The translations under genes and the position numbers were made by a program. Positions 34,963 to 61,865 of a DNA stretch of 64,000 nucleotides are shown here, piece after piece. Within the stretch, counting starts at the first letter, position 1. Every line of letters begins with the position of its first letter. Under the pieces are notes generated by a model. It did no database searches and had not been told where the DNA came from. It saw nothing but the letters and a program-made list of their open reading frames with translations. Origin of the DNA: Antedon mediterranea (Eukaryota > Animalia > Echinodermata); NCBI RefSeq assembly GCF_964355755.1, contig NC_092671.1, forward strand, positions 37,210,304 to 37,274,303, given 5' to 3'.

Positions 34963-37131
34963 TTAATAATTAAATATTTTTACATTGTTTGCTCTGTTGT
35001 TTGCCAATGCCACTCTTCTTGGTCTTTGTGAGATTACAGCAATCCCACATGGAAGACCCAACCCATCATCTTCGTTATCTATTCGTTTAATGAATTTACC
35101 ATTTTGATCAAATAGTTGTAGTTTATGATTACTGGATACTATCATATTCCCATCCATATCTATGGTTATACCATGAGGACCCCAGACTTTACCATCTTCT
35201 TTACTATAGCCTACAAGAATCTTTATCAGCTTATCATTACCATCAAACATTTGTATTCTGTCATTTCCAAAATCAACAACAATCAAATGACCATCCTTTG
35301 TTACAGCAACATCATATGGTTCTTTCATTTGACCTGCTTTACTACCTTCAGAACCTATCTTACCCAGTAGACTACCATCATCAATATTGAATTTAAACAC
35401 ACAGTGACATTCACGATCTGCTACATATAACATCCTGGTCTTTTGGTTTACTGTTACTCCCATTGGATATTTTAATACTCCTTTACCAAAGGTTCGGATT
35501 TCATGATATTGATTATCACACATTACAACACATTTACCTAAATAGTCACTATACACCATGTGACCATTGCCTATTTGATGCATTTTAATGACTTGTACAT
35601 TTTGTGGTATTTGTATCTTAGAAACAAAACCACCTGATTGATCAAACTTTATTAAATCTTTACTGTAGCTGGACACTAACATATATCCATCAGTATTAAA
35701 TACTACATCTGTCACTTTGTTTGTTTTATGATCTTCTTTATACTCTGATATGTTATCTATGGTATGTACAAGTCCAACTGGTTCCACCTTGATACTCACT
35801 GGTGAACCTATGACGTGCGACATATCTCCATCAGTAATATCCATGTGCCAGTCTCCTTCCAAATCACATCTACCTGTTACTGTGTACTCTCCCTTTCTGC
35901 GTGTTACTTCAGTGGTTGATTTCTCACCTGATGAGTTGCTTAGTGTGGCTGTTAATTGACCAACATCACTCTCTGCTAGAATTGATACTTTCACACTAAA
36001 TGGCTGTCCTTTTGTAACTGAAATGTTCTCATCTTCTTTATTAACATTGTGTACACCACCAACAGTGATAAGTTTACCAACACCTTCATGATTCATCAAC
36101 TCAACCAGTTTTGGAGACGGAATAAACTTTGGTGTAATTCTTGTTTTAGCAAATGATTTATCCAATTCATCTGCTGCAGCGTCATTCCCAACTACAGTGA
36201 TAGTTGTCTGGTATGATGCAAGGTTTTCTGTTTCTGTTGGTTTATTCATTGTTTTCTTGATTGATTCCATCAACGTGTTTACTTGTGTCAGCTTGGATTC
36301 AATACTTTTAACTTGACGATCAATCACTTTGCTTTGTTCTTTATAAATCTGTGTAAGATTTGCCATCATTATCTTTGTTTCTTCCTTCACCTTTCTGATA
36401 ATTGTCTTCTCATGAATTTCAATCGCTGTTCTGCTTAACTTCAAATTGGATTCAAACTCTGATCTCTCTTTAGTGATAACATCTAATCTCTCTTTTAGTT
36501 TTCTCTTAATTCCTTCAGCTGTCTTCATCGTTTCAGTAACAGTTGTATTAATCTCATTCAGAGCTATCTTCATTGGGATCACCTCATGTTTATTTCTATA
36601 ACAACGGACAATATGCTTGCAATCTTCACATGCAGGAAGTTTACATGTACGACAGTAATCTTCCAGTTTTTTATCCGGGTGATTTTGGCAGTTTAGTGAA
36701 TCTTCACTTTGTTCTTCTATGTCTGCATCCAGTGTGTATAGTGGATGGTTCTCTAGCGCAGGGAACATCTTATGATGTTGGATGCATTGTCGACACATAT
36801 ACATTTCACATTCAGAGCAATAGTCCTGAGGTTGATTCGCACATCTTGAGCATGCTTCTGGTTTTTCAGATTCAATCTTCTCAACGTATTCAACTAGGTA
36901 ACTGATTGTTTCATTGCACTTCAGATGTTTCAAATCACCATCTTTAAGATCGTAAGTCTCACGGCATTTTGGACATCGTATCTTGCCGTGTCTTCTCATC
37001 AAATCTTGCAGACAGTTAAGACAGTAAGTGTGAAGACAATTAAGCGCCTTTGGATCTGTGAATCTTTGTAGACAGATTGAACATTCCAGATCTCTTTTGT
37101 CAAAAAACTTCAATACTGTTTTAGCAGACAT
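34963..37131 (-). CDS. TRIM-NHL family E3 ligase, copy 4 (722 aa)
   Basis: Same architecture and length as copy 3; intact ORF. Confidence 0.95.
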   Translation of the reverse strand: MSAKTVLKFFDKRDLECSICLQRFTDPKALNCLHTYCLNCLQDLMRRHGKIRCPKCRETYDLKDGDLKHLKCNETISYLVEYVEKIESEKPEACSRCANQPQDYCSECEMYMCRQCIQHHKMFPALENHPLYTLDADIEEQSEDSLNCQNHPDKKLEDYCRTCKLPACEDCKHIVRCYRNKHEVIPMKIALNEINTTVTETMKTAEGIKRKLKERLDVITKERSEFESNLKLSRTAIEIHEKTIIRKVKEETKIMMANLTQIYKEQSKVIDRQVKSIESKLTQVNTLMESIKKTMNKPTETENLASYQTTITVVGNDAAADELDKSFAKTRITPKFIPSPKLVELMNHEGVGKLITVGGVHNVNKEDENISVTKGQPFSVKVSILAESDVGQLTATLSNSSGEKSTTEVTRRKGEYTVTGRCDLEGDWHMDITDGDMSHVIGSPVSIKVEPVGLVHTIDNISEYKEDHKTNKVTDVVFNTDGYMLVSSYSKDLIKFDQSGGFVSKIQIPQNVQVIKMHQIGNGHMVYSDYLGKCVVMCDNQYHEIRTFGKGVLKYPMGVTVNQKTRMLYVADRECHCVFKFNIDDGSLLGKIGSEGSKAGQMKEPYDVAVTKDGHLIVVDFGNDRIQMFDGNDKLIKILVGYSKEDGKVWGPHGITIDMDGNMIVSSNHKLQLFDQNGKFIKRIDNEDDGLGLPCGIAVISQRPRRVALANNRANNVKIFNY

Positions 37132-37680
37132 CTGTAAAATACAATACAGTATTTTTTTCAGTTAGTGTAAACTAAGATGTATTCCAGAAGGAATGACAGA
37201 GTGTGAGGATGCTCAACATAACCTTAATGTTGGCTTTGGATGGATGGCTAAGAAAGAATATAAGAAAATGGTTTCTAAAAATGTCTACAATTAAAAAGAA
37301 AAGCAACCAACATAAACTACGGTAACGGTAACCTCTGTAAGTTTACAAAAAAAAATCCCATCATCGCTACTGTATAATACAAAGGTCAACAAATATACAT
37401 AATGAATGTTTATGAGTTGAATGGGGTTAATTTTAATGATTATAAAAATTGAGGCTGTCACAAATACAACATTCGTTATTTGCTTCATAACCGTCACACA
37501 TTGTGTAACAACTTTTATTCAATTTCATGTATTGTAAATGGCGACACCACGCAGTAGATATCAAGTCGGCTTTCACAAATATAACCCAACCTATCGTATC
37601 GAATACCATTATAAAACTGTTTACACAAAGCTAAGAAGAGTGGCCTACAATAATATAGGGCCTACCTTCAATCGTTAAAA

Positions 37681-38460
37681 GGAGATTTACACACACCACA
37701 AATAGGTTAAGCTTCCAAGTTTATTCAGATTATACATATTTAACAATACATAATATTTATTTCTACTGATACTGTACAAGCAATGCTAAAAACTACTAAA
37801 GCTTAATAATAAACTACATTTGGCCTCTTGGGGGCTACCACTCATTTGACATCGCTGTATGAAAGGTCCAGTGTGTTGTCACAGGAGCCAGATCAAATGG
37901 TTGTTATTAAGTATATCGGTAAGGATGTAATAAGTGACATCCGTTAGGTAAATTGTGGAATTTGGGGGCAAAATAATTCCCCAGAATTATACCAGCCAAA
38001 TTAGCGAATAACCTGAGTAACATATGAGTAGCACCTGTGTTGAGTTAGGTGTTGGATGATGCCGGGGGATGGCTGGGTGGGAAAGATTGAAAAGTTTGTA
38101 CAACTATCGAACGGCTAATTTAACAATGAAGTGTGCTAGTATGCATCTTAGTAAACAACTGAAAACACACTGAATTCCCATTGGTTGCCAATTAGAAATT
38201 AGCCTATCCTACATTTTTGTGGTTCCACTATTAGATATACCCGTTGGTCTATAGAAATACATTGTCAATTACTGTGGTTGGAACTTTGATAAAGTGTCTC
38301 CCTTGACTAACATTCCGTTTTAATTACCTGTAAAAACAATATACCATTCATCCTAACACTTCTATTACTCTGAAATCTACCCACATTTATATACCACATC
38401 CTTAGTTAAAAGAAAGTACTTGTGCCGTGTATAAACTATAATTTATTACTTTAAATTTCC
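37681..38460. mobile_element. Unclassified ~780-bp insertion
   Basis: Interrupts gttaaaa|tga...aaataatacatggctgg as seen in the other units. Short inverted ends GGAGATTTA / TAAATTTCC. Confidence 0.45.
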
Positions 38461-38490
38461 TGAAAATAATACATGGCTGGATACAAAAGA

Positions 38491-41400
38491 TATGGCAAGC
38501 CTCAGCTGTCTGAAGTATTCAAAATATTATATTATTATATCATTTTTTTATTATATTATATATTGTATTGTAATGAATTATACATTTTGCATTATATTAC
38601 TTGGTTTTAGCATTATATTATATCTATTTCTAATATATTATGTGAAAAATGTAACAAATTATTGACTTTTTGTATTATATTATTTGGTTTTAGCATTATA
38701 TTATGAACATTTAATATTATATTATTAATAAAATACATTATATTAAAATATAATTGTATTATATTAAACGCATTTACTTTACTTTATAACATACAACATT
38801 ATTATATTATACGGATTCGTTAGTTATATTATTATGTTGTACGATGTTTATTATACGTCACGGCTTATTTCAGTTCTTCTAACTCTTTCTCTCCCTCCCC
38901 CTGTTCACTAGCAATCAGCGGCCGGCAGAATCTGAATTGTGACTGTTGAAGAATAACTACGTACTAGGCCTAGCCTAGGCCTACTAGGGGATCTAGACAA
39001 GTGACCAAGGATCACCGGACAGCTACAACTAATACTACAATACAATAATACTACTACAATAACTACTACTGCTACTACCTAGGCCTAGCTAGTGAGTAGT
39101 AGGTAGCTACTACTAGGCTCTAGGGCGTATGTATGATGTTAACTACTAGGTAGGGCTAGGCCTAACTAGAGGCCTACTAGTACTAGGCTAGGCCTAGACT
39201 TAAGTTGTAGTAGGCTAGGGCCGGGCCTGCTGCCTTAGGCTAGGCTACTACTACTACTAATACTACTAGGCAGCCCATGATGGGTACGAGTAAGCCAAAA
39301 TTTTGGATATATGTAAACCAAAATTTGGGTACGAGCGTGTTGGCATGGCATGCGTACGGGTTAACCTGTATCCTTCTAGCTAATCGTACTATGCCTAGGC
39401 CTCAAGTAAGTCTACGCTACCCAGTCCGGCTACAATATGGTCTATTTTGTTTTATAGCTTTATTGATAGCTGGGTTCAAATCTGGGTTGGGACGGCTTTT
39501 TCTCATTCTAAAACAGATTTCCTTATAATAAAATAATATATGAATTTATTTGTAATATTGTAATGTATACATAATATAAGTAATTGCCATTGCCTTTATT
39601 ACTATTAATTATGTATTAATAATTATACGGTTACCCCTTAATTATACTATATTATAATTTCATTGTTATATTTTACAATATTTTCTTCCTAATTCTACAA
39701 TTTTGTCTTTCACAGCACAAATTTATCATACTGAATCATCACACACCAAGTCTCATAAATCTCTACTGTATTTGTCCAAGCTACTCCAGCTACATGGTAT
39801 TGCCTTGAGGCTAAATTACACGGTATACTGGCACTACCATCATTCCTGGCTCGTCAACCTGTACCACATAAGCACAGTTTCAGTTTCAGTTTATTTACCA
39901 TTTCAATTTCTGAACATAAGAGATGAACAACTTATATGGATGGATAACCGTAAGAGCGAAGCTCGTTTACCGGTCACCCGTTAGTGCAGTGACATTACAG
40001 ACAACATAAAGACAGGACAAAGGTGCAATACTTAACAAGACATGTGAACACTTGTGTTTGCAACCCCTTGGATAAAATAATATATTTATATAATGGAGAA
40101 AGTTAGATATTATAATATTTCTTTTTGATCATACAATGATAATTTTTAAATTACTTCTTAAGAAGTCATACTACTGATTCAAAATAGTGACTTACACCCT
40201 GTGGTCAAGGCTTTCTTTGCTCTTAGGCTTATTTCCTCCAACATACAGAGTACATAGGACTTTTTTTATTCATAACTGTTGAATTGTTTCCCAATACATA
40301 GTACCTATTGGTATTATATCTAAAAATACAAAGGCGGCTAACACAGATAGTTCCATATATACAGTACTCTTTTATAAATAAATGTATCTCTCCAAACTAC
40401 TCCCAACTACCTAATCTAATAATAGTACTATTAGCATACTACTATACACTTTGTAGACAAGAAATAAGTTGTATACACTAGAGGACTTATGGTAGTACAG
40501 TCGATCGCCCTCTAACTGGCCCGGTCAACATAATCTATACCTAGATTATTACAGTAATTAAAGTACATTATTACAGAGTTTTTTTTTTTTTGCAGAAATC
40601 AAAGTTATGTGTATAGAAAGCAGTACTCGTATTAAAAACTAAGCAGGTTTTTGAACGCAAACTGGCAGGATATTTTGAATATTTTTTGTTGTTGAAACGA
40701 TGGAATCCTAACTTCAATTTCCACGAACCCTTTTATTTAAATTTATTTGAATAGACCTCCATGTAAACTCATTAAAGGCTACATGATTGTTTTATATTTT
40801 AATATGTGATAGTAGAAAATCATTGTGTATAATGAGGACTATGAATCTGATATTTACTTGCATTCTCATCTTTTTAAATTATTATTTATAATGCCGGTAA
40901 TGAGTTTAAAATTTAATTATATTGACTATTTTTGATAATCATCATGTCCTTATAAATTCATTTATATTTCTTTTGTGTAATATAGTTCATATATTATGTA
41001 TTAAGTAAATTGGTAAGGCCCTATACTGTTACTATTTAAGGAAAGTTTATATACACTATTATTTTATGCCTACCAATATTAGTATTAATTGTTTATGTAA
41101 ATATTTTGTCTAATTGCCTTGATTTTTTGTATAGGCCAATGGCATCAATGTTTTTCTCAAAGCAAATTAGCCTAATAATGCCACATTTAGACACATGATT
41201 CATTGATTTCTGATATTCTGTACTTGTGTATGCATTACTAAAATAGTAGTTAATATATTTCATTTATAATGTATGTATAAACATATATTCATATTTTTTT
41301 AAACATTTTTAAATTTAAAAATTATTACAATACCTATCTACCTTTCTGATATTGTTACTATTATATATTATTTTTTGAGGCAGCAATAAAAAAAAAATTA

Positions 41401-44400
41401 GAACAATTAATTTGAGTTATACTGTACTATGTTAGTTCAGGAGATGAAGTGTGTGTGGGCAGAAACTAGTGTGTTGGAGGTTGGTGGTGTGAGGTGTATA
41501 GTTGTCACTTTAAGATCTAAATTAGATGTTTTCTGAAGAAAAGAAGTAAGCGCATACGCTTTCAAACAACTCCAAGAAGATTCACACAAAAATAATTACT
41601 TTCCAATAAAGTAGTATAACAGTGTATATTACAGTACATTGAATAAACTCGAGCGGAATAATAACGCACATAAAAAAACATTCATTTTCTTTTCGAAAAG
41701 TGCCCTCTCTAGTTTTCTATTAATTTATTAATAATTATTATTAATTAATGAGTAATATGAACATATTTTTAACATTCAATGCTGGAAGCTGGTTCTACTC
41801 CTAACAAAGTTTCATATCTCCAAATTTCATCAACGTATTCAAAGCACTTCAATATTAAATATCACATTTAACATAAAAATTCGGGTTTTGGATAGAATTT
41901 TGCTTAAAAACATATACAAAAAACATCGATAAAAAATACTTTTCGTATTCAAAAACATTTGATACTTGGTATAAATGTTCACTATAGGTTGCTCTATTCA
42001 CAGAAAAAAAATTGCATTCATGAACGTTTTTTGTTGGTTGTTTTTTCAAAATAGTTATTAGCTTGAAAAAAACGAGTTGGAATTGTATGGTCTTTCATAA
42101 GTGTACATTTTGTAAAAACGTAAATTTAAAAAATCAGTGATATGGCTTGATAGTTATTTTTGGTTTGCAATATGGATGGAGCAACCTATATTGAACATTT
42201 ATACCAAGTATAAAATGTTTTTGAATACGAAAAGTATTTTTTATCGATGTTTTTTGTATATGTTTTTAAGCAAAATTATATCCAAAACCTGAATTTGTAA
42301 TGTTAAATGTAATTTATTTAAGTGCTTTGAATACGTTGATGAAATTTGGAGATATGAAACTTTGTTAGGAGTAGATACAGTTTCCAGCATTAAATTTTAA
42401 AAATATGTTCATATTACTCATTAATTGATAATAATTATTAATAAATTAATAGAAAACTAGAGAGGGCACTTTTCGACAAGAAAATGAATGTTTTTTTATG
42501 TGTGTTATTATTCCGCTCGAGTTTATTCAATGTACTGTAATATACACTGTTATACTATTTTATTGGAAAGTAAATATTTTTGTGTGAATCTTCTTGGAGT
42601 TGTTTGAAAGCGTATCCGCTTACTTCTTTTCTTCAGAAAACATCTAATTTAGGTCTTAAAGTGACAACTATACACCTCACACCATCAACCTCCAACACAC
42701 TAGTTTCTGCTCACACACACTTCATCTCCTGAACTAACATAGTACAGTATAAGTCAAATAAATTTTTTAATTTTTTTTTATTGCTGCCTCCAAAAATATT
42801 ATATAATAGTAACAATATCAGAAAGGTAGATAGGTATTGTAATAATTTTTAAATTTAAAAATGTTAAAAAAAATATGAATATATGTTTATACATACATTA
42901 TAAATGAAATATATTAACTACTATTTTAGTAATGCATACACAAGTACAGAATATCAGAAATCAATGAATCATGTGTCTAAATGTGGCATTATTAGGCTAA
43001 TTTGCTTTGAGAAAAACATTGATGCCATTGGCCTATACAAAAATCAAGGCAATTAGACAAAATATTTACATAAACAATTAATACTAATATTGGTAGGCAT
43101 AAAATAATAGTGTATATAAACTTTCCTTAAATAATAACAGTATAGGGCCTTACCAATTTATTTAATACATAATATATGAACTATATTACACAAAAAAAGT
43201 ATAAATGAATTTATAAGGACATGATGATTATCAAAAATAGTCAATATAATTAAATTTTAAACTCATTACCGGCATTATAAATAATATTTTAAAAAGATAA
43301 GAATGCAAGTAAATATCAGATTCATAGTCCTCATTATACACAATGATTTCCTACTATCACATATTAAAATATAAAACAATCATGTAGCCTTTAATTTCTT
43401 TACATGGAGGTCTATTCAAATAAATTTAAATAAAAGGGTCATAATATGTCTTCGTCTCCAGTTCGTGGAAATTGAAGTTAGGATTCCATCATTTCAACAA
43501 CAAAAAATATTCAAAATATCCTGCCAGTTTGCATTCAAGACCTGCAACCTGCTTAGTTTTTAATACGAGTACTGCTTTCTATACACATAACTTTGATTTC
43601 TGCAAAAAAAAAAAAAAACTCTGTAATAATGTACTTTAAATACTGTAATAATCTAGGTATAGATTATGTTGACCGGGCCAGTTAGAGGGCGTTCGACTGT
43701 ACTACCATAAGTCCTGTAGGTGTATACAACTTATTTCTTGTGTATAGTAGTATGCTAATGGTACTATTATTAGATTAGGTAGTTGGGAGTAGTTTGGAGA
43801 GATACATCTATCTATAAAAGAGTACTGTATATATGGAACTATCTGTGTTAGCCGCCTTTGTATTTTTAGATATAATACCAATAGGTACTATGTATTGGGA
43901 AACAATTCAACAGTTATGAATAAAAAAAGTCCTATGTACTCTGTATGTTGGAGGAAATACGCATAAGAGCAAATAAAGCCTTGACCACAGGGTGTAAGTC
44001 ACTATTTTGAATCAGTAGTATGACTTCTTAAGAAGTAATTTAAAAATTATCATTGTATGATCAAAAAGAAATATTATAATATCTAACTTTCTCCTTTATA
44101 TAATAAATATATTATTTTATCCAAGGGGTGGCAAACACAAGTGTTCACATGTCTTGTTAAGTATTGCACCTTTGTCCTGTCTTTATGTTTTCTGTAATGT
44201 CACTGCACTAACGGGTGACCGGTAAACGAGCTCCGCTCTTACGGTTATCCATCCATATAAGTTGTTCATCTCTTATGTTCAGAAATTGAAATGGTAAATA
44301 AACTGAAACTGTGCTTATGTGGTACAGGTTGACGAGCCAGGAATGATGGTAGTGCCAGTATACCGTGTAGTTTAGCCTCAAGGCAATACCATGTAGCTGG

Positions 44401-45693
44401 AGTAGCTTGGACAAATACAGTAGAGATTTATGAGACTTGGTGTGTGATGATTCAGTATGATAAATTTGTGCTGTGAAAGACAAAATTGTAGAATTAGGAA
44501 GAAAATATTGTAAAATATAACAAGGAAATTATACTATAGTATAATTAAGGAGTAACCGTATAATACATAATTAATAGTAATAAAGGCAATGGCAATTACT
44601 TATATTATGTATACATTACAATAATATTACAAATAAATTCATATATTATTTTATTATGATAAGGAAATCTGTTTTAGAATGAGAAAAAGTCGTCCCAACC
44701 CAGATTTGAACCCAGCTATCAATAAAGCTATAAAACAAAATAGACCATATTGTAGCCGGACTGGGTAGCGTAGACTTACTTGAGGCCTAGGCATAGTACG
44801 ATTAGCTAGAAGGATACAGGTCAACCCGTACGCATGCCATGCCAACACGCTCGTACCCAAATTTTGGTTTACATATATCCAAAATTTTGGCTTACTCGTA
44901 CCCATCATGGGCTGCCTAGTAGTAGTAGTAGTAGTAGTAGCCTAGCCTAAGGCAGCAGGCCCGGCCCTAGCCTACTACAACTTAAGTCTAGGCCTAGCCT
45001 AGTACTAGTAGGCCTCTAGGCCTAGCCTAGGCCCTAGTAGTTAACATCATACATACGCCCTAGAGCCTAGTATATTCCTACCTACTACTCACTAGCTAGG
45101 CCTAGGTAGTAGCAGTAGTAGTTATTGTAGTAGTATTATTGTATTGTAGTATTAGTTGTAGCTGTCCGGTGATCCTTGGTCACTTGTCTAGATCCCCTAG
45201 TAGGCCTAGGCTAGGCCTAGTACGTAGTTATTCTTCAACAGTCACAATTCAGATTCTGCCGGCCGCTGATTGCTAGTGAACAGGGGGAGGGAGAGAAAGA
45301 GTTAGAAGAACTGAAATAAGCCGTGACGTATAATAAACATCATACAAAATAATAATATAACTAACGAATCCGTATAATATAATAATGTTGTATGTTATAA
45401 AGTAAAGTAAATGCGTTTAATATAATACAATTATATTATAATATAATGTATTTTATTAATAATATAATATTAAATGTTCATAATATAATGCTAAAACCAA
45501 ATAATATAATACAAAAAGTCAATAATTTGTTACATTTTTCACATAATATATTAGAAATAGATATAATATAATGCTAAAACCAAGTAATATAATGCAAAAC
45601 GTATAATTCATTACAATACAATATATAATATAATAAAAAAATGATATAATAATATAATATTTTGAATACTTCAGACAGCTGAGGCTTGCCATA
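38491..45693 (+). mobile_element. Giant foldback DNA element A (non-autonomous, IS3EU-like termini)
   Basis: Inverted arms 38491-41994 and 42179-45693, spacer 41995-42178. Ends TATGGCAAGCC...GGCTTGCCATA. TSD AAAAGA at 38485-38490 and 45694-45699. Confidence 0.9.
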
Positions 45694-45764
45694 AAAAGAT
45701 ATTATCCATGTGTGTTATAATACACATTGTATATAGAACCTTATTTTTTTTTTTTATCTTATAT

Positions 45765-48700
45765 TATGGCAAGCCTCAGCTGTCTGAAGTATTCAAAATA
45801 TTATATTATTATATCATTTTCTATTATATTATATATTGTATTGTAATGAATTATACGTTTTGCATTATATTACTTGGTTTTAGCATTATATTATATCTAT
45901 TTCTAATATATTATGTGAAAAATGTAACAAATTATTGACTTTTTGTATTATATTATTTGGTTTTAGCATTATATTATGAACATTTAATATTATATTAGTA
46001 ATAAAATACATTATATTATAATATAATTGTATTATATTAAACGCATTTACTTTACTTTATAACATACAACATTATTATATTATACGGATTCGTTAGTTAT
46101 ATTATTATTTTGTATGATGTTTATTATACGTCACGGCTTATTTCAGTTCTTCTAACTCTTTCTCTCCCTCCCCCTGTTCACTAGCAATCAGCGGCCGGCA
46201 GAATCTGAATTGTGTGACTGTTGAAGAATAACTACGTACTAGGCCTAGCCTAGGCCTACTAGGGGATCTAGACAAGTGACCAAGGATCACCGGACAGCTA
46301 CAACTAATACTACAATACAATAATACTACTACAATAACTACTACTGCTACTACCTAGGCCTAGCTAGTGAGTAGTAGGTAGCTACTACTGGGCGTATGTA
46401 TGATGTTAACTACTAGGGCCTATCTAGGCTAGGCCTAGAGGCCTACTAGGCTAGGCCTAGACTTAAGTTGTAGTAGGCTAGGGCCGGGCCTGCTGCCTTA
46501 GGCTAGGCTACTACTACTACTACTACTAGGCAGCCCATGATGGGTACGAGTAAGCCAAAATTCTGGATATATGTAAACCAAAATTTGGGTACGAGTGTGT
46601 TGGCATGGCATGGGTACGGGTTGACCTGTATCCTTCTAATCTAGCTAATCGTACTATGCCTTGGCCTCAAGTAAGTCTACGCTACCCAGTCCGGCTACAA
46701 TATGGTCTATTTTGTTTTATAGCTTTATTGATAGCTGGGTTCAAATCTGTGTTGGGACGGCTTTTTCTCATTCTAAAACAGATTTCCTTATAATAAAATA
46801 ATATATGAATTTATTTGTAATATTGTAATGTATACATAATATAAGTAATTGCCATTGCCTTTATTACTATTAATTATGTATTATACTGTTACCCCTTAAT
46901 TATACTATAGTATAATTTCCTTGTTATATTTTACAATATTTTCTTCCTAATTCTACAATTTTGTCTTTCACAGCACAAATTTATCATACTGAATCATCAC
47001 ACACCAAGTCTCATAAATCTCTACTGTATTTGTCCAAGCTACTCCAGCTACATGGTATTGCCTTGAGGCTAAACTACACCGTATATTGGCACTACCATCA
47101 TTCCTGGCTCGTCAACCTGTACCACATAAGCACAGTTTCAGTTTCAGTTTATTTACCATTTCAATTTCTGAACATAAGAGATGAACAACTTATATGGATG
47201 GATAACCGTAAGAGCGAAGCTCGTTTACCGGTCACCCGTTAGTGCAGTGACATTACAGAAAACATAAAGACAGGACAAAGGTGCAATACTTAACAAGACA
47301 TGTGAACACTTGTGTTTGCAACCCCTTGGATAAAATAATATATTTATATAAAGGAGAAAGTTAGATATTATAATATTTCTTTTTGATCATACAATGATAT
47401 TTTTTTAATTACTTCTTAAGAAGTCATACTACTGATTCAAAATAGTGACTTACACCCTGTGGTCAAGGCTTTATTTGCTCTTATGCTTATTTCCTCCAAC
47501 ATACAGAGTACATAGGACTTTTTTTATTCATAACTGTTGAATTGTTTCCCAATACATAGTACCTATTGGTATTATATCTAAAAATACAAAGGCGACTAAC
47601 ACAGATAGTTCCATATATACAGTACTCTTTTATAGATAGATGTATCTCTCCAAACTACTCCCAACTACCTAATCTAATAATAGTACTATTAGCATACTAC
47701 TATACACTTTGTAGACAAGAAATAAGTTGTATACACCTACAGGACTTATGGTAGTACAGTCGATCGCACTCTCACTGGCCCGGTCAACATAATCTATACC
47801 TAGATTAATATTACAGTAATTAAAGTACATTATTACAGAGTTTTGTTTTTTTTTGTTATGTGTATAGAAAGCAGTACTCGTATTAAAAACTAAGCAGGTT
47901 GCAGGTCTTGAATGCAAACTGGCAGGATATTTTGAATATTTTTTGTTGTTGAAATGATGGAATCCTAACTTCAATTTCCACGAACTGGAGACGAAGACAT
48001 ATTATGACCCTTTTATTTAAATATTTGAATAGACCTCCATGTAAAGTAATTAAAGGCTACATGATTGTTTTATAGTTTAATATGTGATAGTAGGAAATCA
48101 TTGTGTATAATGAGGACTATGAATCTGATATTTACTTGCATTCTTATCTTTTTAAAATATTGTTTATAATGCCGGTAATGAGTTTAAAATTTAATTATAT
48201 TGACTATTTTTGATAAATCATCATGTCCTTATAAATTCATTTATACTTTTTTTGTGTAATATAGTTCATATATTATGTATTAAATAAATTGGTAAGGCCC
48301 TATACTGTTATTATTTAAGGAAAGTTTATATACACTATTATTTTATGCCTACCAATATTAGTATTAATTGTTTATGTAAATATTTTGTCTAATTGCCTTG
48401 ATTTTTGTATAGGCCAATGGCATCAATGTTTTTCTCAAAGCAAATTAGCCTAATAATGCCACATTTAGACACATGATTCATTGATTTCTGATATTCTGTA
48501 CTTGTGTATGCATTACTAAAATAGTAGTTAATATATTTCATTTATAATGTATGTAGGCATATAAACATATATTCATATTTTTTTTAACATTTTTAAATTT
48601 AAAAATTATTACAATACCTATCTACCTTTCTGATATTGTTACTATTATATAATATTTTTTGAGGCAGCAATAAAAAAAAATTAAAAAATTTATTTGACTT

Positions 48701-51700
48701 ATACTGTACTATGTTAGTTCAGGAGATGAAGTGTGTGTGGGCAGAAACTAGTGTGTTGAAGGTTGGTGGTGTGAGGTGTATAGTTGTCACTTTAAGACCT
48801 AAATTAGATGTTTTCTGAAGAAAAGAAGTAAGCGGATACGCTTTCAAACAACTCCAAGAAGATTCACACAAAAATAATTACTTTCCAATAAAATAGTATA
48901 ACAGTGTATATTACAGTACATTGAATAAACTCGAGCGGAATAATAACACACATAAAAAAACATTCATTTTCTGGTCGAAAAGTGCCCTCTCTAGTTTTCT
49001 ATTAATTTATTAATAATTATTATCAATTAATGAGTAATATGAACATATTCTTAAAATTTAATGCTGGAAACTGTATCTACTCCTAACAAAGTTTCATATC
49101 TCCAAATTTCATCAACGTATTCAAAGCACTTAAATAAATTACATTTAACATTACAAATTCAGGTTTTGGATATAATTTTGCTTAAAAACACATACAAAAA
49201 ACATCGATAAAAAATACTTTTCGTATTCAAAAACATTTGATACTTGGTATAATTGTTCAATATAGGTTGCTCCATCCATATTGCAAACAAAAAATAACTA
49301 TCAAGCCATATCACTGATTTTTTAAATTTACGTTTTTACAAAATGTACACTTATGAAAGACCATATAATTCCAACTCATTTTTTTCAAGCTAATAACTAT
49401 TTTGAAAAAACAACCAACAAAAAACGTCCATGAATGCAATTTTTTTCTGTGAATAGAGCAACCTATAGTGAACATTTATACCAAGTATCAAATGTTTTTG
49501 AATACGAAAAGTATTTTTTATCGATGTTTTTTGTATATGTTTTTAAGCAAAATTCTATCCAAAACCCGAATTTTTATGTTAAATGTGATATTTAATATTG
49601 AAGTGCTTTGAATATGTTGATGAAATTTGGAGATATGAAACTTTGTTAGGAGTAGAACCAGCTTCCAGCATTGAATGTTAAAAATATGTTCATATTACTC
49701 ATTAATTAATAATAATTATTAATAAATTAATAGAAAACTAGAGAGGGCACTTTTCGAAAAGAAAATGAATGTTTTTTATGTGCGTTATTATTCCGCTCGA
49801 GTTTATTCAATGTACTGTAATATACACTGTTATACTACTTTATTGGAAAGTAATTATTTTTGTGTGAATCTTCTTGGAGTTGTTTGAAAGCGTATGCGCT
49901 TACTTCTTTTCTTCAGAAAACATCTAATTTAGGTCTTAAAGTGACAACTATACACCTCACACCACCAACCTCCAACACACACTTCATCTCCTGAACTAAC
50001 ATAGTACAGTATAACTCAAATTAATTGTTCTAATTTTTTTTTTATTGCTGCCTCAAAGAATATTATATAATAGTAACAATATCAGAAAGGTAGATAGGTA
50101 TTGTAATAATTTTTAAATTTAAAAATGTTAAAAAAAATATGAATATATGTTTATACATACATTATAAATGAAATATATTAACTACTATTTTAGTAATGCA
50201 TACACATGTACAGAATATCAGAAATCAATGAATCATGTGTCTAAATGTGGCATTATTATTAGGCTAATTTGCTTTGAGAAAAACATTGATGCCATTGGCC
50301 TATACAAAAAATCAAGGCAATTAGACAAAATATTTACATAAACAATTAATACTAATATTGGTAGGCATAAAATAATAGTGTATATAAACTTTCCTTAAAT
50401 AGTAACAGTATAGGGCCTTACCAATTTACTTAATACATAATATATGAACTATATTACACAAAAGAAATATAAATGAATTTATAAGGACATGATGATTATA
50501 AAAAATAGTCAATATAATTAAATTTTAAACTCATTACCGGCATTATAAATAATAATTTAAAAAGATGAGAATGCAAGTAAATATCAGATTCATAGTCCTC
50601 ATTATACACAATGATTTTCTACTATCACATATTAAAATATAAAACAATCATGTAGCCTTTAATGAGTTTACATGGAGGTCTATTCAAATAAATTTAAATA
50701 AAAGGGTTCGTGGAAATTGAAGTTAGGATTCCATCATTTCAACAACAAAAAATATTCAAAATATCCTGCCAGTTTGCGTTCAAAAACCTGCTTAGTTTTT
50801 AATACGAGTACTGCTTTCTATACACATAACTTTGATTTCTGCAAAAAAAAAAAAACTCTGTAATAATGTACTTTAATTACTGTAATAATCTAGGTATAGA
50901 TTATGTTGACCGGGCCAGTGATCGACTGTACTACCATAAGTCCTCTAGTGTATACAACTTATTTCTTGTCTACAAAGTGTATAGTAGTATGCTAATAGTA
51001 CTATTATTAGATTAGGTAGTTGGGAGTAGTTTGGAGAGATACATTTATTTATAAAAGAGTACTGTATATATGGAACTATCTGTGTTAGCCGCCTTTGTAT
51101 TTTTAGATATAATACCAATAGGTACTATGTATTGGGAAACAATTCAACAGTTGTGAATAAAAAAAGTCCTATGTACTCTGTATGTTGGAGGAAATAAGCA
51201 TAAGAGCAAAGAAAGCCTTGACCACAGGGTGTAAGTCACTATTTTGAATGAGTAGTATGACTTCTTAAGAAGTAATTTAAAAATTATCATTGTATGACCA
51301 AAAAGAAATATTATAATATCTAACTTTCTCCATTATATAAATCATGGAGTCTTTACTCCATGTATAAATATATTATTTTATCCAAGGGGTTGCAAACACA
51401 AGTGTTCACATGTCTTGTTAAGTATTGCACCTTTGTCCTGTCTTTATGTTTTCTGTAATGTCACTGCACTAACGGGTGACCGGTAAACGAGCTTCGCTCT
51501 TACGGTTATCCATCCATAAGTTGTTCATCTCTTATGTTCAGAAATTGAAATGGTAAATAAACTGAAACTGAAACTGTGCTTATGTGGTACAGGTTGACGA
51601 GCCAGGAATGATGGTAGTGCCAGTATACCGTGTAATTTAGCCTCAAGGCAATACCATGTAGCTGGAGTAGCTTGGACAAATACAGTAGAGATTTATGAGA

Positions 51701-52956
51701 CTTGGTGTGTGATGATTCAGTATGATAAATTTGTGCTGTGAAAGACAAAATTGTAGAATTAGGAAGAAAATATTGTAAAATATAACAAGGAAATTATACT
51801 ATAGTATAATTAAGGGGTAACCGTATAATACATAATTAATAGTAATAAAGGCAATGGCAATTACTTATATTATGTATACATTACAATATTACAAATAAAT
51901 TCATATATTATTTTATTATAAGGAAATCTGTTTTAGAATGAGAAAAAGCCGTCCCAACCCAGATTTGAACCCAGCTATCAATAAAGCTATAAAACAAAAT
52001 AGACCATATTGTAGCCGGACTGGGTAGCGTAGACTTACTTGAGGCCTAGGCATAGTACGATTAGCTAGAAGGATACAGGTTAACCCGTACCCATGCCATG
52101 CCAACACGCTCGTACCCAAATTTTGGTTAACATATATCCAAAATTTTGGCTTACTCGTACCCATCATGGGCTGCCTAGTAGTAGTAGTAGTAGTAGTAGC
52201 CTAGCCTAAGGCAGCAGGCCCGGCCCTAGCCTACTACAACTTAAGTCTAGGCCTAGCCTAGTACTAGTAGGCCTCTAGGCCTAGCCTAGGCCTACCTAGT
52301 AGTTAACATCATACATACGCCCTAGAGCCTAGTAGTAGCTACCTACTACTCACTAGCTAGGCCTAGGTAGTAGCAGTAGTAGTTATTGTAGTAGTATTAT
52401 TGTATTGTAGTATTAGTTGTAGCTGTCCGGTGATCCTTGGTCACTTGTCTAGATCCCCTAGTAGGCCTAGGCTAGGCCTAGTACGTAGTTATTCTTCAAC
52501 AGTCACACAATTCAGATTCTGCCGGCCGCTGATTGCTAGTGAACAGGGGGAGGGAGAGAAAGAGTTAGAAGAACTGAAATAAGCCGTGACGTATAATAAA
52601 CATCATACAAAATAATAATATAACTAACGAATCCGTATAATATAATAATGTTGTATGTTATAAAGTAAAGTAAATGCGTTTAATATAATACAATTATATT
52701 ATAATATAATGTATTTTATTAATAATATAATATTAAATGTTCATAATATAATGCTAAAACCAAATAATATAATACAAAAAGTCAATAATTTGTTACATTT
52801 TTCACACAATATATTAGAAATAGATATAATATAATGCTAAAACCAAGTAATATAATGCAAAACGTATAATTCATTACAATACAATATATAATATAATAAA
52901 AAAATGATATAATAATATAATATTTTGAATACTTCAGACAGCTGAGGCTTGCCATA
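45765..52956 (-). mobile_element. Giant foldback DNA element B (opposite orientation)
   Basis: Arms 45765-49272 and 49456-52956; spacer 49273-49455 is the reverse complement of A's. TSD TTATAT at 45759-45764 and 52957-52962. Confidence 0.9.
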
Positions 52957-52959
52957 TTA

Positions 52960-55900
52960 TATGGCAAGCCTCAGCTGTCTGAAGTATTCAAAATATTATA
53001 TTATTATATCATTTTTTTATTATATTATATATTGTATTGTAATGAATTATACGTTTTGCATTATATTACTTGGTTTTAGCATTATATTATATCTATTTCT
53101 AATATATTATGTGAAAAATGTAACAAATTATTGACTTTTTGTATTATATTATTTGGTTTTAGCATTATATTATGAACATTTAATATTATATTATTAATAA
53201 AATACATTATATTATAATATAATTGTATTATATTAAACGCATTTACTTTACTTTATAACATACAACATTATTATATTATACGGATTCGTTAGTTATATTA
53301 TTATGTTGTATGATGTTTATTATACGTCACGGCTTATTTCAGTTCTTCTAACTCTTTCTCTCCCTCCCCCTGTTCACTAGCAATCAGCGGCCGGCAGAAT
53401 CTGAATTGTGTGACTGTTGAAGAATAACTACGTACTAGGCCTAGCCTAGGCCTACTAGGGGATCTAGACAAGTGACCAAGGATCACCGGACAGCTACAAC
53501 TAATACTACAATACAATAATACTACTACAATAACTACTACTGCCACTACCTAGGCCTAGCTAGTGAGTAGTAGGTAGCTACTACTAGGCTCTATGGCGTC
53601 TGTATGATGTTAACTACTAGGTAGGGCCTAGCTAGGCTAGGCCTAACTAGAGGCCTACTAGTACTAGGCTAGGCCTAGACTTAAGTTGTAGTAGGCTAGG
53701 GCCGGGCCTGCTGCCTTAGGCTAGGCTACTACTACTACTACTACTACTAGGCAGCCCATGATGGGTACGAGTAAGCCAAAATTTTGGATATATGTAAACC
53801 AAAATTTGGGTACGAGCGTGTTGGCATGGCATGCATGGGTACGGGTTAACCTGTATCCTTCTAGCTAATCGTACTATGCCTAGGCCTCAAGTAAGTCTAC
53901 GCTACCCAGTCCGGCTACAATATGGTCTATTTTGTTTTATAGCTTTATTGATAGCTGGGTTCAAATCTGGGTTGGGACGGCTTTTTCTCATTCTAAAACA
54001 GATTTCCTTATAATAAAATAATATATGAATTTATTTGTAATATTGTAATGTATACATAATATAAGTAATTGCCATTGCCTTTATTACTATTAATTATGTA
54101 TTATACGGTTACCCCTTAATTATACTATAGTATAATTTCCTTGTTATATTTTACAATATTTTCTTCCTAATTCTACAATTTTGTCTTTCACAGCACAAAT
54201 TTATCATACTGAATCATCACACACCAAGTCTCATAAAACTCTACTGTATTTGTCCAAGCTACTCCAGCTACATGGTATTGCCTTGAGGCTAAATTACACG
54301 GTATACTGGCACTACCATCATTCCTGGCTCGTCAACCTGTACCACATAAGCACAGTTTCAGTTTCAGTTTATTTACCATTTCAATTTCTGAACATAAAAG
54401 ATGAACAACTTATATGGATGGATAACCGTAAGAGCGAAGCTCGTTTACCGGTCACCCGTTAGTGCAGTGACATTACAGACAACATAAAGACAGGACAAAG
54501 GTGCAATACTTAACAAGACATGTGAACACTTGTGTTTGCAACCCCTTGGATAAAATAATATATTTATATAATGGAGAAAGTTAGATATTATAATATTTCT
54601 TTTTGATCATACAATGATAATTTTTAAATTACTTAAGAAGTCATACTACTGATTCAAAATTCTGACTTACACCCTGTGGTCAAGGCTTTCTTTGCTCTTA
54701 TGCTTATTTCCTCCAACATACAGAGTACACAGGACTTTTTTTATTCATAACTGTTGAATTGTTTCCCAATACATAGTACCTATTGGTATTATATCTAAAA
54801 ATACAAAGGCGGCTAACACAGATAGTTCCATATATACAGTACTCTTTTATAAATAAATGTATCTCTCCAAACTACTCCCAACTACCTAATCTAATAATAG
54901 TACTATTAGCATACTACTATACACTTTGTAGACAAGAAATAAGTTGTATACACTAGAGGACTTATGGTAGTACAGTCGATCGCCCTCTCACTGGCCCGGT
55001 CAACATAATCTATACCTAGATTATTACAGTAATTAAAGTACATTATTACAGAGTTTTTTTTTTTTTTGCAGAAATCAAAGTTATGTGTATAGAAAGCAGT
55101 ACTCGTATTAAAAACTAAGCAGGTTTTTGAACGCAAACTGGCAGGATATTTTGAATATTTTTTGTTGTTGAAATGACGGAATCCTAACTTCAATTTCCAC
55201 GAACCCTTTTATTTAAATTTATTTGAATAGACCTCCATGTAAACTCATTAAAGGCTACATGATTGTTTTATATTTTAATATGTGATAGTAGAAAATCATT
55301 GTGTATAATGAGGACTATGAATCTGATATTTACTTGCATTCTCATCTTTTTAAATTATTATTTATAATGCCGGTAATGAGTTTAAAATTTAATTATATTG
55401 ACTATTTTTGATAATCATCATGTCCTTATAAATTCATTTATATTTCTTTTGTGTAATATAGTTCATATGATATTTATTAAGTAAATTGGTAAGGCCCTAT
55501 ACTGTTACTATTTAAGGAAAGTTTATATACACTATTATTTTATGCCTACCAATATTAGTATTAATTGTTTATGTAAATATTTTGTCTAATTTCCTTGATT
55601 TTTTGTATAGGCCAATGGCATCAATGTTTTTCTCAAAGCAAATTAGCCTAATAATGCCACATTTAGACACATGATTCATTGATTTCTGATATTCTGTACT
55701 TGTGTATGCATTACTAAAATAGTAGTTAATATATTTCATTTATAATGTATGTATAAACATATATTCATATTTTTTTAAACATTTTTAAATTTAAAAATTA
55801 TTACAATACCTATCTACCTTTCTGATATTGTTACTATTATATAATATTTTTTGAGGCAGCAATAAAAAAAAATTAGAACAATTAATTTGAGTTATACTGT

Positions 55901-58900
55901 ACTATGTTAGTTCAGGAGATGAAGTGTGTGTGGGCAGAAACTAGTGTGTTGGAGGTTGGTGGTGTGAGGTGTATAGTTGTCACTTTAAGATCTAAATTAG
56001 ATGTTTTCTGAAGAAAAGAAGTAAGCGCATACGCTTTCAAACAACTCCAAGAAGATTCACACAAAAATAATTACTTTCCAATAAAGTAGTATAACAGTGT
56101 ATATTACAGTACATTGAATAAACTCGAGCGGAATAATAACGCACATAAAAAAACATTCATTTTCTTTTCGAAAAGTGCCCTCTCTAGTTTTCTATTAATT
56201 TATTAATAATTATTATTAATTAATGAGTAATATGGACATATTTTTAACATTCAATGCTGGAAGCTGGTTCTACTCCTAACAAAGTTTCATATCTCCAAAT
56301 TTCATCAACGTATTCAAAGCACTTCAATATTAAATATCACATTTAACATAAAAATTCTGGTTTTGGATAGAATTTTGCTTAAAAACATATACAAAAAACA
56401 TCGATAAAAAATACTTTTCGTATTCAAAAACATTTGATACTTGGTATAAATGTTCACTATAGGTTGCTCTATTCACAGAAAAAAATTGCATTCATGAACG
56501 TTTTTTGTTGGTTGTTTTTTCAAAATAGTTATTAGCTTGAAAAAAATGAGTTGGAATTTTATGGTCTTTCATAAGTGTATATTTTGTAAAAACGTAAATT
56601 TAAAAAATCAGTGATATGGCTTGATAGTTATTTTTGGTTTGCAATATGGATGGAGCAACCTATATTGAACATTTATACCAAGTATCAAATGTTTTTGAAT
56701 ACGAAAAGTGTTTTTTATCGATGTTTTTTGTATATGTTTTTAAGCAAAATTATATCCAAAACCTGAATTTGTAATGTTAAATGTAATTTATTTAAGTGCT
56801 TTGAATACGTTGATGAAATTTGGAGATATGAAACTTTGTTAGGAGTAGATACAGTTTCCAGCATTAAATTTTAAAAATATGTTCATATTACTCATTAATT
56901 GATAATAATTATTAATAAATTAATAGAAAACTAGAGAGGGCACTTTTCGACAAGAAAATGAATGTTTTTTTATGTGTGTTATTATTCCGCTCGAGTTTAT
57001 TCAATGTACTGTAATATACACTGTTATACTATTTTATTGGAAAGTAATTATTTTTGTGTGAATCTTCTTGGAGTTGTTTGAAAGCGTATCCGCTTACTTC
57101 TTTTCTTCAGAAAACATCTATACACCTCACACCACCAACCTCCAACACACTAGTTTCTGCCCACACACACTTCATCTCCTGAACTAACATAGTACAGTAT
57201 AAGTCAAATAAATTTTTAATTTTTTTTTTATTGCTGCCTCAAAAAATATTATATAATAGTAACAATATCAGAAAGGTAGATAGGTATTGTAATAATTTTT
57301 AAATTTAAAAATGTTAAAAAAAATATGAATATATGTTTATACATACATTATAAATGAAATATATTAACTACTATTTTAGTAATGCATACACAAGTACAGA
57401 ATATCAGAAATCAATGAATCATGTGTCTAAATGTGGCATTATTAGGCTAATTTGCTTTGAGAAAAACATTGATGCCATTGGCCTATACAAAAATCAAGGC
57501 AATTAGACAAAATATTTACATAAACAATTAATACTAATATTGGTAGGCATAAAATAATAGTGTATATAAACTTTCCTTAAATAATAACAGTATAGGGCCT
57601 TACAAATTTATTTAATACATAATATATGAACTATATTACACAAAAAAAGTATAAATGAATTTATAAGGACATGATGATTATCAAAAATAGTCAATATAAT
57701 TAAATTTTAAACTCATTACCGGCATTATAAATAATATTTTAAAAAGATAAGAATGCAAGTAAATATCAGATTCATAGTCCTCATTATACACAATGATTTC
57801 CTACTATCACATATTAAAATATAAAACAATCATGTAGCCTTTATTGACTTTACATGGAGGTCTATTCAAATAAATTTAAATAAAAGGGTCATAATATGTC
57901 TTCGTCTCCAGTTCGTGGAAATTGAAGTTAGGATTCCATCATTTCAACAACAAAAAATATTCAAAATATCCTGCCAGTTTGCATTCAAGACCTGCAACCT
58001 GCTTAGTTTTTAATACGAGTACTGCTTTCTATACACATAACTTTGATTTCTGCAAAAAAAACAAAACTCTGTAATAATGTACTTTAAATACTGTAATAAT
58101 CTAGGTATAGATTATGTTGACCGGGCCAGTGAGAGGGCGTTCGACTGTACTACCATAAGTCCTCTAGTGTATACAACTTATTTCTTGTCTACAAAGTGTA
58201 TAGTAGTATGCTAATAGTACTATTATTAGATTAGGTAGTTGGGAGTAGTTTGGAGAGATACATCTATCTATAAAAGAGTACTGTATATATGGAACTATCT
58301 GTGTTAGCCGCCTTTGTATTTTTAGATATAATACCAATAGGTACTATGTATTGGGAAACAATTCAACAGTTATGAATAAAAAAAGTCCTATGTACTCTGT
58401 ATGTTGGAGGAAATACGCATAAGAGCAAATAAAGCCTTGACCACAGGGTGTAAGTCACTATTTTGAATCAGTAGTATGACTCCTTAAGAAGTAATTTAAA
58501 AATTATCATTGTATGATCAAAAAGAAATATTATAATATCTAACTTTCTCCTTTATATAATAAATATATTATTTTATCCAAGGGGTTGCAAACACAAGTGT
58601 TCACATGTCTTGTTAAGTATTGCACCTTTGTCCTGTCTTTATGTTTTCTGTAATGTCACTGCACTAACGGGTGACCGGTAAACGAGCTCCGCTCTTACGG
58701 TTATCCATCCATATAAGTTGTTCATCTCTTATGTTCAGAAATTGAAATGGTAAATAAACTGAAACTGAAACTGTGCTTATGTGGTACAGGTTGACGAGCC
58801 AGGAATGATGGTAGTGCCAGTATACCGTGTAGTTTAGCCTCAAGGCAATACCATGTAGCTGGAGTAGCTTGGACAAATACAGTAGAGATTTATGAGACTT

Positions 58901-60161
58901 GGTGTGTGATGATTCAGTATGATAAATTTGTGCTGTGAAAGACAAAATTGTAGAATTAGGAAGAAAATATTGTAAAATATAACAAGGAAATTATACTATA
59001 GTATAATTAAGGAGTAACCGTATAATACATAATTAATAGTAATAAAGGCAATGGCAATTACTTATATTATGTATACATTACAATAATATTACAAATAAAT
59101 TCATATATTATTTTATTATGATAAGGAAATCTGTTTTAGAATGAGAAAAAGCCGTCCCAACCCAGATTTGAACCCAGCTATCAATAAAGCTATAAAACAA
59201 AATAGACCATATTGTAGCCGGACTGGGTAGCGTAGACTTACTTGAGGCCTAGGCATAGTACGATTAGCTAGAAGGATACAGGTCAACCTGTACCCATGCC
59301 ATGCCAACACGCTCGTACCCAAATTTTGGTTTACATATATCCAAAATTTTGGCTTACTCGTACCCATCATGGGCTGCCTAGTAGTAGTAGTAGTAGTAGT
59401 AGTAGTAGCCTAGCCTAAGGCAGCAGGCCCGGCCCTAGCCTACTACAACTTAAGTCTAGGCCTAGCCTAGTACTAGTAGGCCTCTAGGCCTAGCCTAGGC
59501 CCTAGTAGTTAACATCATACATACGCCCTAGAGCCTAGTATATTCCTACCTACTACTCACTAGCTAGGCCTAGGTAGTAGCAGTAGTAGTTATTGTAGTA
59601 GTATTATTGTATTGTAGTATTAGTTGTAGCTGTCCGGTGATCCTTGGTCACTTTTCTAGATCCCCTAGTAGGCCTAGGCTAGGCCTAGTACGTAGTTATT
59701 CTTCAACAGTCACAATTCAGATTCTGCCGGCCGCGGATTGCTAGTGAACAGGGGGAGGGAGAGAAAGAGTTAGAAGAACTGAAATAAGCCGTGACGTATA
59801 ATAAACATCATACAAAATAATAATATAACTAACGAATCCGTATAATATAATAATGTTGTATGTTATAAAGTAAAGTAAATGCGTTTAATATAATACAATT
59901 ATATTATAATATAATGTATTTTATTAATAATATAATATTAAATGTTCATAATATAATGCTAAAACCAAATAATATAATACAAAAAGTCAATAATTTGTTA
60001 CATTTTCCACATAATATATTAGAAATAGATATAATATAATGCTAAAACCAAGTAATATAATGCAAAACGTATAATTCATTCCAATATAATATATAATATA
60101 ATAAAAAAATGATATAATAATATAATATTTTGAATACTTCAGACAGCTGAGGCTTGCCATA
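52960..60161 (+). mobile_element. Giant foldback DNA element C
   Basis: Arms 52960-56469 and 56653-60161, spacer 56470-56652. TSD ATCTTA at 45756-45761 and 60162-60167, the left copy displaced by B. Confidence 0.88.
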
Positions 60162-61470
60162 ATCTTATGTGGGTTCATCCCACTTTTATTTCCAAACCAC
60201 TGTTCTCTTTACATATATTTTTCACTATACACTATACATATCATTATATTTACAATGTTTGTTTAATCATCTGTATACATATACTTATTTATTCATTTGT
60301 TTACATATTATCACATTGATTAAACATATTATCTGTAACACATTTTCATTAACAAGCTTTTTTTTTTCTTACGTAGTTGTTTTTGATTTTTTCATCTACC
60401 ACATTTTCATTTAACAATGCATATTCTCTGTTATACTCATTACTTACTACATGTTTACTGTTAACATAATATTGTTCTCATCCTTTAACATTAATATTAA
60501 TATTTTTGTTCTTTAATGTTTACAAAACCAGCAGATCCTTTTTTGCATCTATAACTTCTTAAATTTTCATTTAACTTTTTTAATTTCTTCTCTTATGTGG
60601 ATTCATTCCACTTTTTTTTTTTTTACTTATTTTCTTTAAAAAAAAAACTATTTCCATATATTATTTTGTTTATACATACATTATCATTTAACCACATTGA
60701 TTACATAGTTTCCTCTTTTTATACATATTATCTATAACACATTTTCATTAACAAAGCTTATTTTTTCTTACATAGTTGTTTTTGTTTTTTTTTTTCATCT
60801 ACATGCATATTTATTTCATACAATTATAATACGTTTATGTTTAATAAATCCATCCCATGGGTTTGTCCCATTTTATTTTTCTTTGGATTTATCTATGCAA
60901 ACATATTTTCATTTAAACAATGCATATTCTCTGTTATACTAATTACTTACAAACTTTTTACTGTTAACATTATATTTTCCTCATCCTTTAACATTGATTT
61001 TTTTGATCTTTAAATGTTTACAAAATTTATTTCCAACAGATTATCCTTTTTTGCATCTACAGTATAACCCATCAAAGTTTCATTTAACTTTTTTTTTTCC
61101 TATGTGGGTTCATTCAATTATTTTTTTTTACTTATTATTTATTCTATTATTTTTTTATACATACATTATCATTTAACAAAATTTGTGTTTAATGATCCAT
61201 TAAAAAAATTAGACATTCTTTTTTTTCTTTTTAACCATTTTATCATTTCAAAATTCCACATGCAGTAAGAATGTGCAAATTACATATATACGGTATATAC
61301 CTATAATATGAAAGCTTTGATGAAAACACTTCCCCACTTAAACCTAAACCTTCTTATCCTTCATCATTTTTTTTTTATCATCAATCTATAAAAAGCTTTT
61401 CACATTTTGTCTTTTTGTTTTCAAATCATCAAGGTATACATGTTTACAAAACATACAGTATAGTAGCAAG

Positions 61471-61503
<33 letters not shown>

Positions 61504-61620
61504 AAACATAATAGATTCATCATTCATGGTATCTCATTTACATATTTTCTTCCTTAATCTGGTTGAGCATATACAGTATACCTGCAGATTTACATATTTC
61601 TTATATTTTTTTCAGATTTA
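60162..61620. mobile_element. AT-rich ~1.5-kb insertion that hosts B and C (its other end is at 45749-45761)
   Basis: Flanked by a 12-bp duplication AACCTTATTTTT at 45737-45748 and 61621-61632, with a T-run at its left end. Degenerate internal ~450-bp repeats and an A-tract at 61471-61502. Confidence 0.55.
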
Positions 61621-61865
61621 AACCTTATTTTTATTATAGAAAAAGTTATTACTTACTTTGAAAATGTTGTAAACTTCAAAAGACTGTAAATATTCAGACG
61701 AACCTTCTACTTGTGTTCCTGCTGTCTGTTGTGTATTAGCCAATGTACCTTCTGGCCTTCAAATTGAACGTTCTTTTATCTAGCCTAGTAGACTGGAAAT
61801 GTGAACAGTCTACTTCCGATCAGTTATTTCCTGATGTTAAGGGATTCCCCTGTTAAGTACCAATT

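Follow-up and report, generated by a model that had tools for sequence, protein, structure and literature searches.

The 64,000-nucleotide stretch of Antedon mediterranea DNA analysed here, the whole of which is referred to as the window, contains an ordered transposon hotspot of a known kind, in which five inserts (X, A, Y, C and B) lie within approximately 80 ancestral bases. A, B and C are copies of a single element family, and the nesting of the inserts establishes that Y arrived before C and C before B. Two features of the locus are newly found, namely the nesting of C in Y and the apparent status of B as an outsider to the other two copies. Three separate insertions took place within 70 bp, probably, though with appreciable room for doubt, because the AT-rich site, bordered by poly(T) and likely intronic, is a tolerated target that was re-created by each 6-bp duplication.

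The window consists of animal-type DNA and carries a minus-strand tandem array of TRIM-NHL genes, a LINE-like element and minisatellites. The four TRIM-NHL paralogs are 90-96% alike (1-807, 5999-7969, 21930-24119 and 34963 to about 37131-37161), the second having a shorter frame of 656 codons that starts past the RING region. Matches to the RING, B-box and NHL families of Pfam were found in both of the paralogs scanned. The open reading frame of the fourth paralog is intact, and a splice-acceptor-like TTTTACAG stands immediately 5' of its ATG. Because the hotspot is situated about 0.6 kb upstream of this ATG and the acceptor-like sequence preceding it, we infer that the site likely falls within a 5' intron of the gene. 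Elsewhere in the window, the LINE-like element (10050-13373) retains endonuclease and reverse transcriptase frames with one in-frame stop between them, and a 54-bp tandem repeat lies on both sides of it (9628-9986, 13480-14546). Across the paralogous units, a 42-bp minisatellite (4154-5474, 27579-33220, 61869-61983) varies from about 3 to 135 copies, and 48-bp repeats (1985-2082, 21222-21321, 63357-64000) vary from 2 to more than 13. The features of the hotspot are listed in Table 1.

Table 1. Host gene, inserts and target duplications of the hotspot (positions within the window)
Feature	Position	Strand	Remarks
Host TRIM-NHL gene, fourth paralog of the tandem array	34963 to about 37131-37161	-	732-codon open frame
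Insert X, 777 bp	37686-38462	.	not present in the other three paralogs; without a clear duplication
A, left target duplication AAAAGA	38485-38490	+	single copy in paralog 1 and in a contig of run X4
Element A, 7203 bp	38491-45693	+	TATGG..CCATA ends; inverted pair of the terminal motif
Hexamer GAATTA, element position 85-90	38575-38580	+	the same hexamer of another copy adjoins two different junctions in sample S4
A, right target duplication AAAAGA	45694-45699	+	
Host DNA between inserts	45700-45736	.	conserved in paralogs
Y, left 12-bp duplication (45737-45748) running into T12 tract (45744-45755)	45737-45755	-	T12 corresponds to the poly(A) tail of Y on this strand
C, original left target duplication ATCTTA	45756-45761	+	six bases of Y immediately preceding its tail
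B, left target duplication TTATAT	45759-45764	+	three bases of C's duplication and a stranded copy of C's terminal TAT
Element B, 7192 bp	45765-52956	-	orientation opposite to that of A and C; the most diverged of the copies; starts TATGGC, ends GCCATA
B, right target duplication TTATAT	52957-52962	+	3-bp spacer TTA and C's present terminus TAT
Element C, 7202 bp	52960-60161	+	orientation as A, its closest relative; ends GCCATA
C, right target duplication ATCTTA	60162-60167	+	
Y, body and right 12-bp duplication (61621-61632)	60168-61632	-	about 1.46 kb, AT-rich

The terminal motif of the elements occurs six times in 64 kb, forming three inverted pairs, and all six ends read TATGGC inward. Each element is a foldback composed of two arms of about 3.5 kb and an unpaired centre of about 170 bp, with degenerate 21/42-bp AT-rich repeats in the outer zone of the arms. 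The arms are alike at their tips and diverge centrewards; among the 37 fixed left-right differences in an alignment of all six arms, none falls in the first 660 bp (the earliest is at or beyond position 661) and 15 fall in the last 500. Element A has, in each of its arms, a 2-bp deletion near position 450 and a change private to it at 863, a sign of arm-to-arm conversion. No transposase gene was recognised in the three copies. Element A holds 36 frames of at least 50 codons, the longest of 108, and a Pfam scan of two of the 36 returned no match; likewise, an Rfam search over 37000-64000 and a comparison of the element end motif with metagenome contigs returned none. A motif search of the window, covering 38 kb upstream and 3.8 kb downstream of the three copies, found no fourth. 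Joined across a 3-bp centre, B and C make up a 14.4-kb palindrome that is perfect over 149 bp on each side and would be expected to be unstable; in addition, composite transposons of 14-22 kb could be bounded by outer ends of the three elements.

Very long inverted arms are characteristic of foldback elements such as Drosophila FB, Galileo and sea urchin TU, which A, B and C resemble in their long arms, degenerate repeats, lack of a gene and greatest arm similarity at the tips. Foldback is a shape and not a lineage, however, and the ends and duplication length of A, B and C point to IS3EU. IS3EU and GingerRoot elements are described as having TA..TA ends (TAYGG..CCRTA in fungal families) and 6-bp duplications, with GingerRoot elements of 3.9-12.9 kb having arms of 100-150 bp and GC-rich targets (PMC10045372, PMC12730594, PMC6839031). 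The TATGG..CCATA ends, 6-bp duplications and length of about 7.2 kb seen here fit these descriptions, whereas the apparent lack of a gene for a transposase, which in IS3EU is an IS3/IS481-related DDE enzyme, the arms of about 3.5 kb and the AT-rich targets do not. Polintons (Mavericks) were also considered and rejected, as these are described with termini starting AG and with integrase and polymerase genes (PMC6839031), whereas the present ends are TAT..ATA and no gene is present. The copies are accordingly called IS3EU-like, non-autonomous foldback DNA transposons, a label kept provisional because they hold no recognisable gene.

The junctions are read directly from the sequence. Positions 45756-45764 read ATCTTATAT, with the TATGGC of B beginning at 45765, and positions 52957-52965 read TTATATGGC, directly after the terminal GCCATA of B at 52956. 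An earlier note on this DNA had read TTATAT on either side of B and C running into ATCTTA, and this agrees base for base. A 6-bp duplication accompanies all three copies, and since the boundaries are fixed by the inverted repeats and two random local hexamers would match with P of about 1.3e-3, none of the three matches is attributable to chance. The reading of AAAAGATAT, which flanks A on both sides, as a 9-bp duplication was rejected, as it requires asymmetric ends and fails for B and C. The empty A site, with one AAAAGA, is preserved in paralog 1 and also in one contig of run X4 from another sample, as an allele or a further paralog. As A ends at 45693, 68 bp from the original left tip of C, the insertions are tightly grouped; a random triple within 70 bp would have P of at most 4e-6, where copy numbers of 30-300 in 0.27-1 Gb are assumed and not measured. 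The duplication of B straddles the tip of C and automatically regenerates it, and B and C therefore both keep complete ends, as the note had claimed.

In addition to the three elements, two unrelated inserts occupy the site. X ends 22 bp from the target of A and is unique in the window; with its left boundary shifted 6 bp outward, a 9/10 inverted match between its ends appears. Y, which is absent from the paralogs, carries internal repeats of about 500 bp and, at 60185-60190 on the minus strand, an AATAAA separated from the tail by 23 nt; its duplicated 12-mer is present as a single copy in paralog 3. On these hallmarks, Y is likely a retroposed transcript end. C was inserted at the poly(A) edge of this earlier insert, a circumstance that the note had missed and that offers a plainer cause for the hotspot than the one proposed there. 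Because X and Y are unrelated to the A/B/C family and yet share the same 80 or so bases, the site evidently draws or tolerates more than that family.

The order Y, C, B follows from the nesting of the inserts, whereas A and X have no place in it because both lie in host DNA. The internal repeats of Y at 60593 and 61100 read TATGTGG, as does the DNA to the right of C, and this fixes the ancestral target and gives a history in which C came first with no change at all. The precedence of C over B proposed in the note thus holds, with no mutations required for C first and two for B first.

The note had further argued for three separate insertions rather than a tandem duplication, and this stands: the copies are diverged, B is inverted and each copy has its own 6-bp duplication. 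Aligned in matched orientation, the copies show 54 mismatches with 14 gap openings between A and C, 74 with 27 between A and B, and 81 with 28 between B and C. A three-way alignment contains 100 variable columns, of which 22 are private to A, 46 to B and 31 to C, with all three copies different in one. When the alignment of six arms was polarised with the opposite arm as outgroup (124 variable gap-free columns), 11 derived substitutions were shared by A and C, three by A and B, and none by B and C. The 2-bp deletion near position 450 is likewise common to A and C, and is lacking from B and from contigs of runs X1 and X4. By this alignment, A and C are sisters and may be a donor-daughter pair. 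Conversion of the right-type arm of B could mimic eight of the 11 states shared by A and C, but not as one tract, because fixed left-right sites in between keep the right-type state. B is not derived from C, with which it has no derived substitution in common; thus, although the last of the B/C pair, it appears to be an outsider that hopped from neither C nor A.

Other samples were represented by seven runs from three studies, all of them contig sets, of which four (X1, X4, X6 and X7) from two samples were used; X5, which matches X4 in sample and size, was left out, as were X2 and X3, whose share is below 0.1. The depth of element ends far exceeds that of single-locus contigs (825 versus 11-14 in X4, 744 versus 7.5-10 in X7 and 25000 versus 141-170 in X6), which suggests a family of tens of copies, depth itself being no copy number. 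Ten outward flanks, consisting of loose ends and one joint, were taken from 20 of 77 and 19 of 23 rows, with three low-agreement consensus rows left out, and form a small sample biased to flanks that resemble the compared stretch. Had copies elsewhere carried the same flanking hexamers, the note held, these would be part of the element. Nine of the ten flanks differ from all six flanks in the window and the tenth repeats TTATAT before continuing with other DNA, so the hexamers do not belong to the element. All 16 outward flank hexamers (six from the window and ten from other samples) contain at least four A/T, and no shared target motif emerged among them in this small, biased sample. One third of host hexamers have five or more A/T, and AT richness alone is therefore insufficient to explain the cluster. 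A hairpin in the spacer between A and B was tried as a target signal and rejected (z -0.60; 48 of 200 shuffles fold as well).

The same samples bear on whether copies of the family are commonly joined end to end. When the B|C junction (52911-53005) was compared with 101 contigs from the two samples, no end-to-end joint, indel or changed letter was listed, although contigs do not show absence; no contig bridging the junction appeared among the matches listed (27 pieces, 75 further). Head-to-head, palindromic junctions are described as liable to amplify poorly and to drop out of amplified libraries (10.1101/158386). Run X1 has no cover over 45700-45790, which is not proof of absence. Two different junctions, both from sample S4, place an element tip beside position 85-90 of another copy. 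In the first, the contig is of 55 bp and matches young sequence (a loose end of X4, record 25 of X7), and in the second, it is diverged and at single-locus depth (the joint of X6, record 17); one side of each was seen and read by hand, and such flanks, matching the compared stretch, are over-represented. These junctions may be nested insertions or duplicated tips. They suggest some degree of preference of the family for its own ends, with position 85-90 a possible self-insertion hotspot.

In the account favoured here, a transposase supplied in trans would make a two-ended, 6-bp staggered insertion each time. C would take the six bases next to the T tract that forms the poly(A) tail of Y, and its left junction would then be nearly identical to the empty site: beyond the T tract, 10 of 11 bases are as before, since the element opens with TATGG and the target had gone on with TGTGG. 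B, from another donor, would use that stretch again with its cut 3 bp farther along, so that its duplication straddles the tip of C. The preference for the site itself is what we infer here. Counting against the AT-rich site, the three other paralogs have similar upstream sequence without such inserts, and also without the longer T tract of Y. Also counted against this account is the B/C spacer of 3 bp, as opposed to the full 6-bp duplication expected of a classical double-insertion dimer.

A precedent is provided by the P element. Tandem dimers in Drosophila are reported to arise by double insertion, in the P element above all (10.1101/158386), and P is described as re-inserting at restored sites and as having a hotspot inside its own end, at bp 19-26 (PMC2577343). 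As described for P, a second independent copy is inserted at the first, in head-to-head pairs and at hotspots near the 5' ends of genes, and the hotspot inside P's own end resembles position 85-90 here. The independence of the two copies is evident in B and C from their 81 mismatches and lack of shared derived substitutions. In contrast, the P copies described are separated by the full 8-bp duplication, whereas the second cut here is shifted 3 bp into the first element and leaves 3 bp in place of 6 bp. No P-like target motif that the three terminal bases would complete was seen: by hand count in this biased sample, bases 7-9 of the 16 flanks agree with TAT in 18 of 48 positions, roughly as often as by chance.

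Local hopping, the first of two causes suggested in the note, is rather unlikely to account for the locus. By this explanation, excision after replication would be followed by reinsertion near the donor, A giving rise to C or the reverse, and B would come from a neighbour outside the window. The sister relationship of A and C, with 11 derived substitutions and the 2-bp deletion in common, is what such hopping would leave, and tandem-inverted, co-localised copies are reported for Styx of Zymoseptoria, an IS3EU-related element with a 6-bp duplication for which proximal insertion has been proposed (PMC10853768). Styx is like the present family in both its duplication length and the arrangement of its copies, but is fungal and protein-coding, and the account cited describes no tip-centred insertion. 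Moreover, 54 substitutions and 14 gap openings between A and C are many for a donor and daughter with intact junctions, no fourth copy lies in the surrounding 38 kb or 3.8 kb, and X and Y are left unexplained. Above all, B is the most diverged copy and cannot derive from C. Local hopping of B from C thus fails, whereas A and C may be related by such a hop, or a copy outside the window may have been the donor.

The other suggested cause, targeting of the element's own ends, is less likely still. Here, the transposase would bind a resident end and place the incoming end 3 bp away, in the manner of the bacterial IS911 and IS30, which insert beside their own inverted repeats, and copies would pile end to end; the broader proposition that a eukaryotic IS3EU transposase aims at the ends of its own family, at the tip centre or at subterminal position 85-90, and builds giant palindromic arrays from unrelated donors is similarly doubtful. 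A 3-bp distance is known from targeted insertion by IS911, as distinct from its circle junctions. The 6-bp cut of B is centred exactly on the tip of C, and B, though from another donor, landed on that tip. The resulting arrangement of end, 3 bp and end has the spacing of the IS911 circle junction, described as 3-4 bp (PMC2909936, PMC7780238), and the IS3EU transposase has been placed near those of IS3 and IS481 (PMC10045372), although the relation between the superfamily of IS911 and IS30 and that of IS3EU is a distant one. The two junctions beside position 85-90 are in keeping with such targeting, but this position lies inside the element, whereas the 68 bp from A to C lie outside it. End targeting by IS30 is described as a single-strand transfer yielding only left-right junctions (PMC9333248), whereas B was inserted by both ends, with a clean duplication on either side, and the B|C junction joins two left-type arms, though tips are alike for about 660 bp. 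The B|C junction is the one case of an end-short spacer-end arrangement, and the absence of a bridging contig, a joint, an indel or a changed spacer letter among the matches listed for 101 contigs weighs, if weakly, against routine end-to-end joining.

It is very improbable that a single element was duplicated in tandem or inverted form, or that fold-back reads of a long palindrome misled the assembly. Long palindromes are difficult to assemble, the data, all contig sets, include no read spanning the junction, and 60 of the 99 private changes are transversions, some of which may therefore be errors. Nevertheless, a separate 6-bp duplication accompanies every copy, the elements were not duplicated together with any host DNA, and the copies are separated by 54-81 substitutions and by indels of up to 27 bp, some of them common to copies in a tree-like pattern. 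Least credible of all is the reverse order, in which B came first and C then entered its right tip, or a B-allele and a C-allele were joined by recombination, for although ATATTA to the left of C is one base from ATCTTA and TTATAT is one base from TTATGT, two substitutions within the 6-bp duplications would be needed, and one of these would have to bring back the ancestral base that the repeats of Y show.

The mechanism of IS3EU has been described as largely unexplored (PMC11934779), and no paper on IS3EU hotspots or tip insertion was found in the open literature. At this locus, five inserts in about 80 ancestral bases have added approximately 24 kb beside a TRIM-NHL gene whose frame remains open. 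End targeting, if true, would link the eukaryotic IS3EU elements to the bacterial IS3 pathway, and would provide a way for transposons to give rise to long palindromes and arrays.
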